From the NCBI GenBank assembly GCA_025823825.1, contig GCA_025823825.1_4720.1: a stretch of 64,000 bases of DNA; one strand, given 5' to 3'. Made by a program: the position numbers and the translations under genes. The notes beneath the pieces are model-generated. The model did not search any database. It was not told the origin of the DNA and saw only the letters and a program-made list of their open reading frames with translations. How positions within the stretch are numbered: the stretch's first letter is position 1; every line of letters begins with the position of its first letter. Source of the stretch: a phage. Below, piece by piece: positions 58,140 through 64,000 of the stretch.

Positions 58140-58790
58140 TCATTCATGACGCATATCTTCCAAATCATCCTTTTGTTTTGTAAATTCTGATTGCTTGCGA
58201 TAAACCGCCCATGCGTCGTATATACCGTTAAAAGTCAAATGACGCGCATTTAAGTTCACGGTGAATTCTTCCACAGAGGCAAAATCCGAACGAAGCATCG
58301 AATGGAAGGTGTCATCTCCAGTGCAGCCTCCGTACCCTTCGCCCTGATAAACCAAAAGCTGGTGGGGTTGGATACGTGCGGCAACCAACGCCGCTTGTGA
58401 TTCGTGGTAAGGTGGCCACGACAGTAGAATAACGTCGTACTGTGAAAGATCGATGTTTGTGTAGTCCGCTTGCTGGATATCATCAATAAACGGATGGGGG
58501 TGTATTGCGATGTCGTACGCGGTAATATCCTCAACACCAAGTTTACGTAACACGTAAGTCAGGTAACCTGTCCCACAACCCAAGTCAGCGATGCGTCGCC
58601 CGTAACAGATGTTCGCTAACTGGAGCGCGGTATCCATGGTTAACAACGACCATCCAACATGCTGGGTATATTCTTCACGGACAATCCATTGTTGATGGTG
58701 CGTCATCGGTTCTAAGATAGCAGCAAGCTGCTGGTACGGCAACGGCATTTTGGTTTCGCCTTGCGTGAGTAATGCAATAACATCGTTCAT
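58140..58790 (-). CDS. class I SAM-dependent methyltransferase (217 aa from internal ATG), possible amino-methyltransferase
   Basis: Motif I IADLGCGTGYL, acidic AYDI after it, then DVILLSWPPYHE resembling the xPPY catalytic motif; internal ATG with AAAGGA RBS; the track N-terminal extension is a translated intergenic hairpin. Confidence 0.65.
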   Translation of the reverse strand: MNDVIALLTQGETKMPLPYQQLAAILEPMTHHQQWIVREEYTQHVGWSLLTMDTALQLANICYGRRIADLGCGTGYLTYVLRKLGVEDITAYDIAIHPHPFIDDIQQADYTNIDLSQYDVILLSWPPYHESQAALVAARIQPHQLLVYQGEGYGGCTGDDTFHSMLRSDFASVEEFTVNLNARHLTFNGIYDAWAVYRKQSEFTKQKDDLEDMRHE

Positions 58791-58814
58791 TCTGTTTCCT
58801 TTTATCGGCATAAG

Positions 58815-58833
58815 CCCTCCCATGCCGGGAGGG
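58815..58833. repeat. GC-rich intergenic hairpin (CCCTCCC-ATGCC-GGGAGGG)
   Basis: 7-bp stem flanked by CGGCATAAG, between 58839-59267 and the methyltransferase start. Confidence 0.45.
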
Positions 58834-58838
58834 TACAA

Positions 58839-59267
58839 TTATTCATTTTCAATAACTTTAAGATTCGGTGTACCAAGCGTTTTCTTCACCAACGCTTCGG
58901 CAACACGTTTCTCGATGAAATCGGTCGCATTGCTTCCGTCTATCGTACGCATGTCGCCACGGAAGTTATTGAAGACCATAAACAAGTCACAACCGTCGAT
59001 AGGTATCGCAAGATCATAACTGACTTGTGATGCCGTGAAATGGACACCCACGACAACGGCGGGAACGAATTTAACCGCTGTGTTATCTCCTTCTTCTCCG
59101 GTTCCGAACGGAAGCTCAACACGATCACCGATAGAGAACTGTGAGACATCATTAATCGCGTGAGTTAGTGCGATTCGTTGCATGTCGGCGATCTTTTCCT
59201 TATTCGCGTCGCAAGGTAGGTCCAAGACTTCTTCCAACGTGAAGAATTTACGATCGAACCAGCTCAT
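58839..59267 (-). CDS. hypothetical protein (142 aa)
   Basis: ATG with AAAGGAG RBS. Confidence 0.65.
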   Translation of the reverse strand: MSWFDRKFFTLEEVLDLPCDANKEKIADMQRIALTHAINDVSQFSIGDRVELPFGTGEEGDNTAVKFVPAVVVGVHFTASQVSYDLAIPIDGCDLFMVFNNFRGDMRTIDGSNATDFIEKRVAEALVKKTLGTPNLKVIENE

Positions 59268-59268
59268 G

Positions 59269-59802
59269 TTAAGCTCCTTTGTGTTTTACGGACGATGTTA
59301 ACCAGGACGATCTTACCGTGAAACCCTCAGACTCGTAGAACGCCTGGGCTTCATCATTGTCGGCGCGAACATCCAGACCGATAGAATGGCCACCGCACTG
59401 GTAAGCGATGTTGCGCGCCTCATTCATCAAGGCATGGCCGATCCCGCGTCCGCGATATTCGGGTTTTACAATAATCGATGTAACGTCATGAATGCCCATA
59501 TGGCTCTCTGTATTCACTTCCAAGAGGCCTACCGGCATCGAAGCGATAGCATCGATCATAACGACCAACATTGCAGTATCTGGTAAACGCTTTTCTAATT
59601 CTAAAGCATCGTACTCGCGTTTTAAATCGGGGATATTCTCAAACATAAACGTGGTAGCCCATGCCTCTGATTCTACATCGTCGAGAATACGGTACAGCTC
59701 ACGAATCTGTCGTTTATGTGGGTAAAGGTGTGGATCGGCAGCCGTTGAGGCGATAACGCAATAGAACGGTCGTTCATTAATAACTACTGTTTTGATGCTC
59801 AT
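59269..59802 (-). CDS. GNAT-family N-acetyltransferase (177 aa)
   Basis: Acetyl-CoA binding motif VKPEYRGRGIGHALM and C-terminal AQAFYESEGF; ATGA overlap with upstream gene. Confidence 0.8.
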   Translation of the reverse strand: MSIKTVVINERPFYCVIASTAADPHLYPHKRQIRELYRILDDVESEAWATTFMFENIPDLKREYDALELEKRLPDTAMLVVMIDAIASMPVGLLEVNTESHMGIHDVTSIIVKPEYRGRGIGHALMNEARNIAYQCGGHSIGLDVRADNDEAQAFYESEGFTVRSSWLTSSVKHKGA

Positions 59803-60305
59803 GCTAAAATTCCCTCATTACCTAACAGTCGATTACGATGACGTCGGTACATTTGACAAAGTGTTGTGATTTGATAATGTTTGTTATAACGTAATTCGAT
59901 ACGTTTTTGCACCTCTTTCCATGAAAGTTTATCGTATTGCCGATAACGATGGATTTCATTTAACATACGAAGACGAGTAGGATCGGTGTTCTTTATCGTC
60001 GTGAGCTTCACACGTTGATATCCACGCTGTAGTCCCGATTCGGAATACGTGACGTCAAACTCATCTTGAATGATGGTAATGATCTCCCGCCACCGACGGT
60101 TCTCGCCGTCACGTAAATGGACAACCCGCGATAAGATATCGTTCCGATTACGATGACTCAGTTTAATGTTAAGCATTGAAGCAATCGCGCTAATTGCTCT
60201 CTGACTCCGTCCTAACGCTTCACCTATTTCTTTCGATGTCATGACGCCCGCGTTTCGGCGTATGAATGCGATTTCGGTTGTTGTGTATTCTTTACCTGCT
60301 GCCAT
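59799..60305 (-). CDS. Myb/SANT-like helix-turn-helix repeat protein, array member A (168 aa)
   Basis: EIGEALGRSQRAISAIASML and W-containing repeats (WREIITIIQDEF, WKEVQKRIELRY) shared with the next five genes. Confidence 0.7.
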   Translation of the reverse strand: MAAGKEYTTTEIAFIRRNAGVMTSKEIGEALGRSQRAISAIASMLNIKLSHRNRNDILSRVVHLRDGENRRWREIITIIQDEFDVTYSESGLQRGYQRVKLTTIKNTDPTRLRMLNEIHRYRQYDKLSWKEVQKRIELRYNKHYQITTLCQMYRRHRNRLLGNEGILA

Positions 60306-60769
60306 TTCTTACCACGTGTGTTATAATAGTAACGCTGACAAAGATGTGTGTGATGATACTCCCGTTTGAACTCGACGCTGATAATGCGAGCAACTTCTCT
60401 CCAGTTAACTCCTTCATGCCGAAGTGCTGTAATACGGTCTGAAATTTTGCACCATTCATCTGGATCGTATCGTCGTAGTTTGAGTCGTCGTATTACGGAG
60501 GCGACACTCGCTCTCGATCGACCAAGATGATTTGACAGTTGTTTAACCGAGTATCTGTGGATATTGTCACGAATATAGGAAATCTCGTTGTCCGTATATG
60601 CCTCATTGGTTCTCGACGAAGGGAACAGCATATACAACTTATTCTTAATCGCGCTTTCTGTGCGTTGAAATACAGAAGCCAGCTCACTAACCGGTGGTCT
60701 GGGTATCTGGTCCGCGTAATACTCGAGGCGCGAGAGTTCCTCATCTGTCCAGCGACGACACTTGCGCAT
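60239..60769 (-). CDS. Myb/SANT-like HTH repeat protein, array member B (176 aa from internal ATG)
   Basis: Internal ATG (MRKCRRWTDEELSRL) with AAGGAG 7 nt upstream; QLSNHLGRSRASVASVIRRL; WREVARIISVEF. Confidence 0.7.
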   Translation of the reverse strand: MRKCRRWTDEELSRLEYYADQIPRPPVSELASVFQRTESAIKNKLYMLFPSSRTNEAYTDNEISYIRDNIHRYSVKQLSNHLGRSRASVASVIRRLKLRRYDPDEWCKISDRITALRHEGVNWREVARIISVEFKREYHHTHLCQRYYYNTRGKKWQQVKNTQQPKSHSYAETRAS

Positions 60770-61244
60770 GGGCAACTCCTTTGTTTTTCGTGTAGTAACA
60801 CCAACGTTGATACAACGCATGTTTATTCGTTGTAATCCCAAATTTAACAACAACGTCGTATGTGATAACATTCCAATTTTGGGTAACGTTAAGTCGTTCC
60901 GCGATAAACGCGATAATCGCTTCCCGTTCTTGCTTGGTTAGCGCACGACGAATTCTATTAAGCCGTATAAACTGACGAACCGAGTCATACGAACGGTTTA
61001 AATCGTACGCAATCTCCCTCAGCGATTTTTGTTTGATTACCGACTTGATGTACGCGCGTTCTTCTTCCGTATACGGTCGATGCTTTTGACGTTGACGTAT
61101 TCCCAAACGTCCCAGACGCGCGTCGATGCTGGCGCGTGTTCGTCCTGTCCGTTGTGCGATTTCATCAATCGTCAGCGACGTGTTCAAATACAGGTGTGTA
61201 ACATCTTTTAACTCATCGTCACACCACGGCCGAGGTCGTCCCAT
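60741..61244 (-). CDS. Myb/SANT-like HTH repeat protein, array member C (167 aa)
   Basis: PWCDDELKD...IDEIAQRTGRTRASIDARLGRL; WNVITYDVVVKF; GAGGGA RBS. Confidence 0.75.
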   Translation of the reverse strand: MGRPRPWCDDELKDVTHLYLNTSLTIDEIAQRTGRTRASIDARLGRLGIRQRQKHRPYTEEERAYIKSVIKQKSLREIAYDLNRSYDSVRQFIRLNRIRRALTKQEREAIIAFIAERLNVTQNWNVITYDVVVKFGITTNKHALYQRWCYYTKNKGVAHAQVSSLDR

Positions 61245-61722
61245 CTTGTATCCCTCTTTTCTTTCTATGATGCCACCAACGCTGATAGACAGCTTGCTTC
61301 GTACGTGTTATGCCAAAATGCGCATTAACCCGTTCAGCAATGTGGTGCCAATCCTGTGTTTCTTCCAACAATGTATCAACGAAGGCTATGAAGATCTTAG
61401 TATCATCCTCACTTAACCGCTTGAAACCATGACGGTGTGCTATCGTTCTAATACTGTTTGGATCTCTGTTTAAATCGCGTGCGAGTTGTTTGTAACTTTT
61501 GTGTTTGCAGTGCACTCTGATGTATTCCAACTCATCGACACTGAAACGTTTATGCGGTTTACGACGTTCAACATTTAAGTACCTCAACCTAGATTCGATT
61601 GCCCCATACGTCGTTTCCATGATTTCCGCGATTTCACGGATTTTTAATTTCGGATGGCGGTGGTACAATTTCAGCAACTGTTCATCGTCCTTACGATTCC
61701 ATCGTCGTACTGGAGGTTTCAC
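61219..61722 (-). CDS. Myb/SANT-like HTH repeat protein, array member D (167 aa, GTG start)
   Basis: GTG preceded by AGGAGA; RWNRKDDEQLLKLY...IREIAEIMETTYGAIESRLRYL; WHHIAERVNAHF. Confidence 0.7.
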   Translation of the reverse strand: MKPPVRRWNRKDDEQLLKLYHRHPKLKIREIAEIMETTYGAIESRLRYLNVERRKPHKRFSVDELEYIRVHCKHKSYKQLARDLNRDPNSIRTIAHRHGFKRLSEDDTKIFIAFVDTLLEETQDWHHIAERVNAHFGITRTKQAVYQRWWHHRKKRGIQDGTTSAVV

Positions 61723-61735
61723 AACGAGATTTCTC

Positions 61736-62203
61736 CTATTCTACGCGTTTTAATGCTTGAGTGTAGTAGAGGGCATGAACACCGCTTAACGTGTAATGGG
61801 TGTTAAATTCGTTATTGATGATATTCTGTATTCTCTCCCAGGTTTTCTTCTCTTTTCTAAGAGTATGTATTCGGTGATAGATCATCTCTCGACGTTGCGC
61901 TTTGCACGCGATAATACCGTAGCGGTAGCAGAGTTTAGCGATCGCATCCACGCTACGATTGAACATTACCGCGGCTTCTTTCACGCTGTGCGTCTTGAGA
62001 TAATCGGCTAACATCACGCGTTCTTCGAAACAACAATAGCGGTGACGCGACGTGAGTTTCCAGCGCTTGCGATTACGGTTAATTCGACCTTGAACCGAAC
62101 CTTCCGTTCGGCCAAGTCGTACCGCAATCTCTTGCATCGGTATACCGTTTCGGTACAGGGTAATCAACATCGCATCTTCTTCGGGTGTCCAGTCCTTGAC
62201 CAT
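61736..62203 (-). CDS. Myb/SANT-like HTH repeat protein, array member E (155 aa)
   Basis: DWTPEEDAMLITLYRNGIPMQEIAVRLGRTEGSVQGRINRNRKRW closely follows the Myb repeat pattern (WTxEED ... W); WERIQNIINNEF. Confidence 0.75.
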   Translation of the reverse strand: MVKDWTPEEDAMLITLYRNGIPMQEIAVRLGRTEGSVQGRINRNRKRWKLTSRHRYCCFEERVMLADYLKTHSVKEAAVMFNRSVDAIAKLCYRYGIIACKAQRREMIYHRIHTLRKEKKTWERIQNIINNEFNTHYTLSGVHALYYTQALKRVE

Positions 62204-62215
62204 AATGCCACCCCA

Positions 62216-64000
<1,785 letters not shown>

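Follow-up and report, generated by a model that had tools for sequence, protein, structure and literature searches.

Two enzyme genes near each other in a Goslar-like jumbo phage: a predicted spermidine N-acetyltransferase and a viral methyltransferase probably acting on a non-DNA substrate

When a phage encodes an acetyltransferase and a methyltransferase almost side by side, it may be asked whether the two enzymes act on DNA or on host proteins, and whether they act together. Such a pair is found in the window analyzed here, a 64,000-nucleotide stretch of phage DNA that is 96.9% identical to phage Goslar; the source is thus a Goslar-like, nucleus-forming jumbo phage of E. coli. The region 58140–59802 contains three genes on the minus strand: one codes for a GNAT, the next for an ORFan of 142 aa, and the third for a SAM-methyltransferase of class I. 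Their counterparts in Goslar are gp113, gp112, and gp111, respectively. The reading that we favor, with a probability of roughly 0.55, is that of two functionally independent accessory enzymes, a spermidine N-acetyltransferase and a viral methyltransferase with a cationic, non-DNA substrate.

Table 1. Coordinates of genes and motifs in the acetyltransferase–methyltransferase region (positions in the window).
Feature	Position	Strand	Basis
GNAT CDS, 177 aa, orthologue of Goslar gp113 (QBO63906)	59269..59802	-	PF00583 match, 174/177 identity
GNAT motif A, R117-G-R-G-I-G122, acetyl-CoA pyrophosphate-binding loop	59437..59454	-	sequence; inside PF00583 and PF13508 matches
Acidic 142-aa ORFan between the two enzymes, orthologue of Goslar gp112	58839..59267	-	ORF
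Methyltransferase ORF with TTG start, 232 aa	58140..58838	-	ORF as first listed
Methyltransferase CDS, 223 aa, orthologue of Goslar gp111	58140..58811	-	ATG 58811 with RBS GGGAGGG; PHROG 19090
Methyltransferase motif I, D76-L-G-C-G-T-G82, SAM-binding glycine loop after β1	58566..58586	-	sequence
Methyltransferase β4 and motif IV, D126-VILLS-W132-P-P-Y135-HE, DVILLSWPPYHE	58401..58436	-	sequence, model
Methyltransferase W-P-P-Y tetrad	58407-58418	-	sequence
Methyltransferase post-β5 signature, G157-E-G-Y-G-G-C-T-G-D-D167, motif VI region	58311..58343	-	family conservation

The motifs DLGCGTG and DVILLSWPPYHE, and the coordinates given in an earlier note on this DNA, were recovered when the sequence was read again directly. 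These motif and domain features are far beyond chance, since the GNAT scores 56.0 bits with Pfam PF00583 (E=6e-15) against a curated cut-off of 20.7, and both methyltransferase motifs are retained across 260 homologues. The note's description of the two genes as adjacent holds in the sense of proximity, but not strictly, as the 142-aa gene intervenes; in the order of transcription the GNAT gene is upstream, followed by the 142-aa gene and then by the methyltransferase gene. Both enzyme genes would be co-transcribed within a long leftward gene block, and a scan for promoters and terminators gave no signal beyond the shuffled expectation. The 232-aa methyltransferase ORF beginning with TTG is probably too long, because a GGGAGGG sequence precedes the ATG at 58811, the probable true start, from which translation yields a protein of 223 aa, as annotated for Goslar. 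An alternative ATG at 58790 would give a protein of 216 aa.

The GNAT is canonical, as the earlier note had stated: in addition to the Pfam score obtained in the HMM check, motif A (R/Q-x-x-G-x-G/A) is present as R117-GRGIG-122. Sequence matches in the PDB include PaiA, SpeG, and diamine N-acetyltransferase, and the best NCBIfam match is RimI (TIGR01575) with 55.1 bits, below its cut-off of 86.4; the score with the PaiA equivalog NF053587, 36.7 bits, is far below the cut-off of 250. The function is indicated by a much closer relative. The protein is identical at 174 of 177 positions (98.3%) to Goslar QBO63906, and this protein, heterologously over-expressed in E. coli BL21 delta-speG, produced N-acetylspermidine, as detected by LC-MS (Li et al., 2023; PMC9992855, section 8 and SI Table S4). 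The same assay gave N-acetylspermidine for SpeG, PaiA, and the enzymes of Erwinia phages phiEaH2 and Caitlin. With the Erwinia phage enzyme, the window GNAT shares only about 30% identity (PMC9992855, SI Table S4).

Because of its near-identity to the experimentally assayed Goslar protein, the window GNAT is by homology a spermidine N-acetyltransferase, which would transfer the acetyl group of acetyl-CoA to the spermidine of the host and so yield N-acetylspermidine, an inactive form. It is thus predicted to modify polyamines, not DNA or host proteins, which the earlier note had named as targets. The fold and motif A are shared with SpeG and PaiA; judged by sequence, the enzyme is nevertheless not an orthologue of either, but a member of the GNAT superfamily with an analogous function, because its NCBIfam PaiA and RimI scores are below the cut-offs and its identity to the Erwinia phage enzyme is about 30%. 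No kinetics or substrate range has been published for QBO63906, and we found nothing in the literature that names Goslar gp111 or gp113, nor any mention of a WPPY motif. GNATs in general can be promiscuous. For this half of the locus nothing new emerges, as it represents a further copy of an already assayed phage spermidine acetyltransferase.

The methyltransferase is 93% identical in protein sequence to Goslar gp111. Its AF2 model (pLDDT 92.8) has the seven-stranded α/β class I fold with the canonical strand order, and consists of a Rossmann core of about 170 aa with an N-terminal helical lid and no further domain. In motif I, the glycines G80 and G82 are retained in 258/260 and 256/260 homologues (98–99%) and are invariant in a 65-row alignment; many methyltransferase models from Pfam and NCBIfam match this region. 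Residue D100, at the end of strand β2 (residues 96–100), is 95% conserved and fits the acidic residue that binds the SAM ribose. Based on the motifs and the fold, we predict a stand-alone Rossmann-fold SAM-dependent enzyme that would bind SAM via GCGTG and D100. Matches in Pfam, NCBIfam, and PADLOC cover motifs I–IV alone, at or below the cut-offs, and assign the protein to no named family. The best Pfam match is PF05175 (MTS), at its cut-off.

The note had recognized an xPPY-like tetrad with Trp at the position usually occupied by Asn, Asp, or Ser, and both observations are borne out. In the model, β4 comprises residues 127–131 and W132-P-P-Y135 follows directly; among 260 homologues, W132 is present in all, P133 in 258, P134 in 150, and Y135 in 226. 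The possibility that the PPY motif is not structurally equivalent, raised at the same time, does not hold, because hhalign places LLSWPPYHE on IVSNPPYID of PrmC, with W-P-P-Y in register with N183-P-P-Y186. The position of the tetrad immediately after β4 and its aromatic fourth residue (Y135, 87%) are as in amino-methyltransferases. In contrast, the first tetrad residue in HemK/PrmC, RsmC/RsmD (MTS, PF05175), and METTL5/Ta1320 is Asp, Asn, or Ser and the Pro-Pro dipeptide is conserved, whereas in the window family Trp is invariant at the first position, and only 58% of members have the second proline, with Asp, Cys, Asn, Glu, and Ser also occurring there. Hence the canonical amino-methyltransferase chemistry suggested by the resemblance is not supported, as Trp is invariant exactly where Asp, Asn, or Ser is obligatory.

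The retained scaffold may still be taken to indicate an RNA or protein amino-methyltransferase that acts on the translation apparatus in the manner of RsmD, METTL5/Ta1320, Mtq2, or PrmC, with Trp serving for substrate stacking; candidate targets would be m2G or m6A sites in rRNA or tRNA, Gln or Lys residues of release factors or ribosomal proteins, and EF-Tu. Consistent with this are the register of motif IV with the PrmC NPPY, the PF05175 match, a phmmer match to METTL5, and the small size and absence of added domains, as in RsmD and METTL5; a ribosomal target is also universal and suits the host range described below. However, the invariant Trp stands in place of the acceptor residue by which this group is defined, the second proline is variable, and the proteins are acidic. 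Moreover, the similarity ends at motif IV, as PrmC-type enzymes have no counterpart of the GEGxGGCTGDD loop and HD pair that follow in the window family, and the PF05175 score reaches its cut-off for the Goslar-like members alone. We consider a target in the translation apparatus unlikely, though by no means far-fetched.

Beyond motif IV, in the post-β5 signature, G157 is present in 100% of the 260 homologues, E158 in 259, G162 in 258, C163 in 255, and T164 in 235. Further family features are an (H/Y)-D pair before β7 (D199) and an N-terminal arginine, R45. Searches of the PDB by sequence, performed with the single sequence, the full profile, and a profile of the C-terminal half, matched the N-terminal half alone; the C-terminal (catalytic) profile had zero matches at E<=10, including no m5C or m5U structure. 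Likewise, none of the curated Pfam and NCBIfam families spans the catalytic half.

RNA m5C/m5U methyltransferases carry their nucleophile in the motif VI (post-β5) loop, and the 98% conserved Cys163 and the near-invariant Glu158 occupy a loop at the same place. They could act covalently on RNA, DNA, or a nucleotide, in the way known from the C5 methylation of pyrimidines (m5U/m5C), with the substrate held by the glycine-rich loop acting as a phosphate-binding element. Yet this cysteine is situated six residues past β5 and lacks a TCS or SCNP context, the m5U match spans motifs I–IV alone, and the C-terminal profile finds no structure of this or any other type, so that we regard covalent catalysis as very improbable. 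A resemblance to another class may be noted: the PRMT motif 'SEWMGY' and THW loop recall 'SWPPY' and 'IHDxW' of the window family. However, the PRMT matches span the motif I region alone, and the methyltransferase has no PRMT β-barrel domain.

Homologues of the methyltransferase form the uncharacterized family PHROG 19090 (E=2.9e-17; residues 53–214 aligned to profile positions 34–190 of 191). At E<=1e-30, metagenomes contain approximately 790 clusters at 50% identity. Members are found almost exclusively on contigs of viruses: 25 loci were found in 185,579 species genomes, mostly on short MAG contigs, compared with 109 in IMG/VR. Its hosts include Proteobacteria, Actinobacteria, Firmicutes, and haloarchaea. 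Among the members, with 25–36% identity (tblastn), are PhiCh1 ORF83, PhiH1_425, HGTV-1 gene 67, and gp121 of Klebsiella phage Miami; these, like the related proteins of Klosneuvirinae, are annotated as uncharacterized or as generic AdoMet methyltransferases. In a structural search of BFVD, family members including Miami gp121 occupied ranks 1–3 (TM 0.73–0.81), and the giant-virus (Klosneuvirinae) methyltransferases, with TM 0.56–0.66, were above every PDB entry; apart from the family itself, no proteins are structurally closer. The eight longest homologues (298–864 aa) contain no informative additional Pfam domain that would indicate a fusion partner. Similarly, analysis of gene neighborhoods in annotated phages and metagenomic contigs, together with clustering by BLAST of the 1,105 ORFs that surround 80 IMG/VR loci, yielded no enriched partner. 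When 98 flanking proteins were scanned with Pfam, one DNA methylase and no GNAT were identified.

The earlier note had proposed protection of phage DNA from host restriction by an N6-adenine or N4-cytosine methylase. Apart from the xPPY-like tetrad, two observations point in this direction. Firstly, the protein has weak matches to γ-class DNA N6-adenine methyltransferases (PADLOC Type II MTase and MADS mad2) over motifs I–IV, at residues 62–137 (E=2e-6 to 8e-6), the alignments running through residues 136–137, in agreement with the register of motif IV. Secondly, two DNA methylase genes, of the C5 and the N4 type, directly precede the gene of the homologue in PhiCh1 and phiH, both of which are haloviruses. 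Against this, the PADLOC alignments cover 75 residues of models of roughly 500, and the window protein, unlike the γ-class enzymes, has no target-recognition domain, no motif IV Asn/Asp (the catalytic position being an invariant Trp), and no specificity subunit or restriction partner nearby. The protein is acidic (pI 5.07, net charge -13), and so is the family, with a median pI of 5.3 and 87% of members below 7. The need for protective methylation is also lower in this phage, whose DNA is kept inside a protein nucleus. Thus, the methyltransferase is probably not a sequence-specific DNA methylase guarding the genome from restriction, given its core of only about 170 aa, its acidic pI, the lack of a recurrent neighbor in 80 loci, and the single DNA methylase among 98 flanking proteins; we find the protective role highly improbable.

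What the enzyme may methylate instead is suggested by its predicted substrate pocket, which would be formed by the W-P-x-Y tetrad, the G-E-G-x-G-G-C-T-G-D-D loop, the (H/Y)-D pair, and R45. Here Trp stands in place of the Asp, Asn, or Ser hydrogen-bond acceptor, and the conserved acidic residues E158, D166, D167, and D199 are located around the predicted site. The two aromatic residues could form a clamp or a cation–π cage, and the acidic residues could serve as acceptors. Because the invariant Trp replaces the acceptor and acidic residues surround the site, we infer a positively charged substrate, methylated at a nitrogen or another nucleophile. It is probably cationic and not DNA, as judged from the protein charge, the composition of the pocket, and the lack of a recognition domain. 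The target may further be universally present, because the host range extends from Proteobacteria, Actinobacteria, and Firmicutes to haloarchaea, and the structurally closest proteins beyond the family are methyltransferases of giant viruses. A small metabolite (an amine or a polyamine) or a nucleotide would then be likelier than a conserved part of the translation machinery.

The methyltransferase half of the locus is modestly useful, as it defines a sizeable and almost purely viral family, distributed among bacterial phages and haloarchaeal viruses and with structural relatives in giant viruses. The family retains the amino-methyltransferase scaffold, but has an invariant Trp in place of the catalytic Asp/Asn and, in addition, a unique loop rich in Gly, Cys, and Asp. 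Automated annotation classes such proteins as generic SAM methyltransferases, or, in some pipelines, perhaps as methylases of DNA or tRNA; that they fall outside the amino-methyltransferase definition guards against over-reading them as anti-restriction genes. While no long-standing question depends on this enzyme, it is a tractable target for substrate discovery.

Polyamines are universal; the conserved acidic and aromatic residues of the catalytic half (whose location in the pocket is predicted), like the acidic protein as a whole, would suit a polycationic amine; and the neighboring gene encodes the orthologue of a proven spermidine acetyltransferase. The products of all three genes might therefore be thought to form a single polyamine-remodeling module. 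The methyltransferase would then N-methylate spermidine, putrescine, or N-acetylspermidine, or perform polyamine chemistry linked to SAM or decarboxylated SAM that complements acetylation. Nicotianamine synthase is among the Foldseek matches, as are N-methyltransferases (for example NodS), but the matches are weak (E about 1e-6, TM < 0.55). Outside the Goslar-like phages, moreover, GNATs are absent from the 98 methyltransferase-flanking proteins, and the Klebsiella and Serratia jumbo phages that possess both genes hold them approximately 200 kb apart. This distance, and the absence of a GNAT near the methyltransferase in the closest non-Goslar relative, argue for the independence of the two genes, and a joint module seems doubtful in the extreme. 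An even bolder version, equally hard to credit, is that the W-P-x-Y/GEGxGGCTGDD proteins constitute an unrecognized virus-specific class of SAM enzymes with a universal cationic metabolite as substrate, and that in Goslar-like phages such an enzyme acts jointly with the GNAT, for instance as an N-methylase of spermidine or acetylspermidine, and thereby reprograms the host polyamine pool in the course of infection; if true, no pathway of polyamine methylation would have been known from phages before.

The 142-aa protein encoded by the middle gene has zero matches in Pfam, PHROG, NCBIfam, and PADLOC and only six homologues among 5.8 billion proteins, and its AF2 model is unusable (pLDDT 42.5). 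The GNAT–ORFan–methyltransferase triad is kept among Goslar-like phages down to approximately 61% identity of the middle gene, as would suit a module; this conserved adjacency is, however, little informative, because the whole region is syntenic in the Goslar relatives. Functional coupling of the two enzyme genes is accordingly not supported, linkage being limited to a lineage in which the entire neighborhood is syntenic. The persistence of the triad to this level of divergence leaves room for a shared role in Goslar-like phages.

The interval 58140–59802 contains three consecutive ORFs, all on the minus strand, in a window that shares 96.9% DNA identity with Escherichia phage vB_EcoM_Goslar, a nucleus-forming chimallivirus. 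Both methyltransferase strings quoted in the earlier note, DLGCGTG and DVILLSWPPYHE, are exact. At its longest, the methyltransferase ORF begins with a TTG codon; an ATG at 58811, preceded by GGGAGGG, yields a 223-aa product, as annotated in the reference phage. A single base separates the GNAT stop codon from the next start, and the GNAT start is overlapped by the gene upstream; hence all three genes lie within one long leftward block. A scan for σ70 promoters and terminators gave nothing exceeding shuffled expectation. The ligase gene, with its frame open, is cut by the window edge.

Features of the locus and of the methyltransferase; residue positions refer to the 223-aa product, secondary structure to its AF2 model, and conservation to an alignment of 260 family members
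Feature	Position	Strand	Description
GNAT	59802..59269	minus	177 aa; Goslar gp113 (acetyltransferase)
Middle ORF	59267..58839	minus	142 aa; Goslar gp112 (hypothetical)
Methyltransferase ORF	58838..58140	minus	Goslar gp111 (class I SAM-dependent methyltransferase)
DLGCGTG	58566-58586	minus	read from sequence
DVILLSWPPYHE	58401-58436	minus	read from sequence
DNA ligase, NAD-dependent (LigA)	62529-64000	minus	Goslar gp121 orthologue; frame open to window end
N-terminal helical lid	residues 7-69		AF2 model
β1	residues 74-77		AF2 model; motif I next
β2	residues 96-100		AF2 model; D100 at its end
β4	residues 127-131		AF2 model
β5	residues 152-157		AF2 model
β7	residues 200-206		AF2 model
Arg	R45		97%
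Asp	D100		95%
Trp	W132		260/260
Pro	P133		258/260
Variable position	134		Pro 150/260; otherwise D, C, N, E, S
Tyr	Y135		226/260
Gly	G157		100%
Glu	E158		259/260
Gly	G162		258/260
Cys	C163		255/260
Thr	T164		235/260
Asp pair	D166 / D167		73% / 76%
Asp	D199		97%; His ahead of it in 80%, Tyr in window protein

Pfam and NCBIfam profiles matched only the motif I region of the methyltransferase, at or under their cut-offs (top Pfam match PF05175 MTS, 23.1 bits against 23.0), and its RefSeq label reads only “class I SAM-dependent methyltransferase.” A full-length match was obtained to PHROG 19090, of unknown function (E = 2.9e-17). Among 5.8 billion proteins, 19 homologues were identified by single sequence and then 341 by profile, whereas an exhaustive search of 50%-identity representatives yielded 7,497 (E ≤ 1e-3), 4,811 (E ≤ 1e-10), and 788 (E ≤ 1e-30). 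Most members are stand-alone proteins of about 200 aa, and the few longer ones have no recognisable added domain. By tblastn, the family occurs in jumbo phages of Aeromonas, Klebsiella, Serratia, Salmonella, Xanthomonas, Stenotrophomonas, and Pseudomonas, in one Streptococcus phage, and in the haloarchaeal viruses PhiCh1, phiH, and HGTV-1. Pattern scans found 109 relatives in IMG/VR and only 25, mostly on short MAG contigs, in 185,579 prokaryotic species (one genome each). The family is thus essentially virus-borne. We found no paper on it, on its W-P-x-Y motif, or on the function of any member.

The confident AF2 model (65-sequence alignment; pLDDT 92.8, pTM 0.89) and the sequence show a class I fold with SAM-binding motifs. 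Foldseek matches in the PDB (E about 1e-6, TM below 0.55) are mostly small-molecule methyltransferases, and structure searches revealed no specific neighbour; the top structural relatives are other viral proteins, with phage family members at TM 0.73–0.81. In BFVD, the model (m79ea96f45105) finds closer matches than any solved structure offers: uncharacterised “methyltransferases” of giant viruses in the Klosneuvirinae (Gaeavirus, Harvfovirus, Bodo saltans virus, Hokovirus, Hyperionvirus), with TM 0.56–0.66 and E between 1e-14 and 1e-9. Judging from these matches, the fold variant may extend to eukaryotic viruses.

The tetrad W132-P-P-Y135, previously likened to the xPPY motif of amino-methyltransferases, comes straight after β4. 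In the hhalign comparison of the family profile with E. coli PrmC (probability 93.8%), LLSWPPYHE falls on IVSNPPYID, with W132 on N183 of NPPY, and the alignment ends thereafter. Hence the tetrad is the equivalent of motif IV in topology as well as in position, and this part of the likeness holds. The residues themselves do not follow: amino-methyltransferases have an Asp, Asn, or Ser acceptor at the position of the invariant Trp, where the family never does, and the Pro-Pro dipeptide that defines their motif IV is not conserved. Thus, the methyltransferase builds on the amino-methyltransferase scaffold but lies outside that group as defined by its motif. The catalytic half (WPxY ... GEGxGGCTGDD ... 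HD) matched zero PDB chains by sequence, even at E ≤ 10.

Class I methyltransferases form their acceptor site from the loops that follow β4 and β5 and the loop that precedes β7, and the highly invariant residues of the family are situated on these same loops. Conserved in the family are aromatic (W132, Y135) and acidic (E158, D166, D167, D199) residues. The window protein is acidic (pI 5.07, net charge -13), as is the family (median pI 5.3; 87% of members below pI 7); neither a recognition domain nor a partner was found for it, and the hosts of the viruses bearing it include both bacteria and archaea. From these observations, we infer an acceptor that is small or extremely conserved and positively charged, rather than sequence-specific DNA. 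The evidence runs against the DNA-protecting role raised as a possibility in the earlier note, and corrects an anti-restriction interpretation that is otherwise tempting. Compared with an RNA or protein target of the translation apparatus, N-methylation of an amine-type metabolite is preferred by a small margin. A Cys-dependent C5-pyrimidine mechanism, suggested by the conserved Cys163 and Glu158 and by nothing else, is without sequence support. These findings are not so surprising as to alter current views. The family presents a clean target for substrate discovery.

The GNAT half is already known, being characterised through Goslar QBO63906.1 (174/177 residues identical). When QBO63906 (177 aa, SI Table S4) was expressed in E. 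coli BL21 ΔspeG, dibenzoylated N-acetylspermidine was seen by LC-MS, and the protein was assigned to phage spermidine N-acetyltransferases (Li et al., 2023; PMC9992855). The authors hypothesise that an early loss of spermidine could make CRISPR and restriction less faithful. The window protein scores 56 bits against PF00583 (cut-off 20.7) and contains motif A (R117-GRGIG-122). Its PDB sequence matches, including PaiA, SpeG, and a diamine N-acetyltransferase, are consistent with this role, and since it falls below the NCBIfam equivalog cut-offs of PaiA and RimI, it is an analogue of the bacterial enzymes in function and not their orthologue.

A polyamine role of the methyltransferase tied to this acetyltransferase is attractive but unsupported beyond the Goslar clade. 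The GNAT–ORFan–methyltransferase triad is restricted to Goslar-like E. coli phages, recurring at 83% methyltransferase and about 61% middle-gene identity; as the whole block there is syntenic, from the DNA ligase through the HTH paralogues, the adjacency is uninformative. In KpLz_1_41, LPKP23, MJ359, and KpYy_2_45, the GNAT homologue and the methyltransferase are about 200 kb apart.

No conserved partner of the family was observed across the contexts examined. When the 1,105 ORFs of 80 viral loci were clustered by BLAST, no neighbour family occurred in more than four loci; a 10-locus cluster, resembling antisense ORFs overlapping the methyltransferase gene, was set aside as probably spurious. 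Among 98 immediately flanking proteins, no Pfam family occurred in more than three loci, with zero GNATs and one DNA methylase, probably from PhiCh1 (L047). Aeromonas phage pAEv1810 and Klebsiella phage Miami have hypothetical proteins as annotated neighbours, none with a Pfam match, and the metagenomic surroundings are accessory regions of a kind usual in phages. In PhiCh1 and phiH, the family gene comes after C5 and N4 DNA methylase genes.

In these two viruses (PhiCh1, L004 1289-4474; phiH, PhiH1_405-425), it overlaps the stop codon of the N4/N6 methylase gene, itself preceded by the C5 methylase gene, the sole context found in which the family is tied to DNA modification. One metagenomic phage lineage that is widespread (protein P0120, on 47 contigs) has a gene with a GmrSD_N (DUF262/ParB-like) domain whose end is overlapped by the methyltransferase gene (L007-L009, 5447-6636), a pairing unseen in other lineages.

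The middle protein is an acidic (pI 4.6), lineage-restricted ORFan without a family match. Only six homologues were found in 5.8 billion proteins, all on Goslar-like E. coli phage contigs, along with a weak tblastn match in Erwinia phage Bue1. The N-terminal sequence of the protein, MSWFDRKF-TLEEVLD, varies at one position only; the AF2 model (pLDDT 42.5) is unusable. Directly upstream of the GNAT gene, six tandem paralogues of 115–210 aa (59799-62563, minus strand; counterparts of Goslar gp114–gp119) encode Myb/SANT-like or HTH proteins, some in overlapping frames, with pairwise BLASTP E-values from 1e-5 to 2e-26. The first has a match (E = 1e-9) to PHROG 323, “transcriptional regulator, D5-like”. 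Together the six make up an expanded array of putatively DNA-binding proteins in a phage of the nucleus-forming type.
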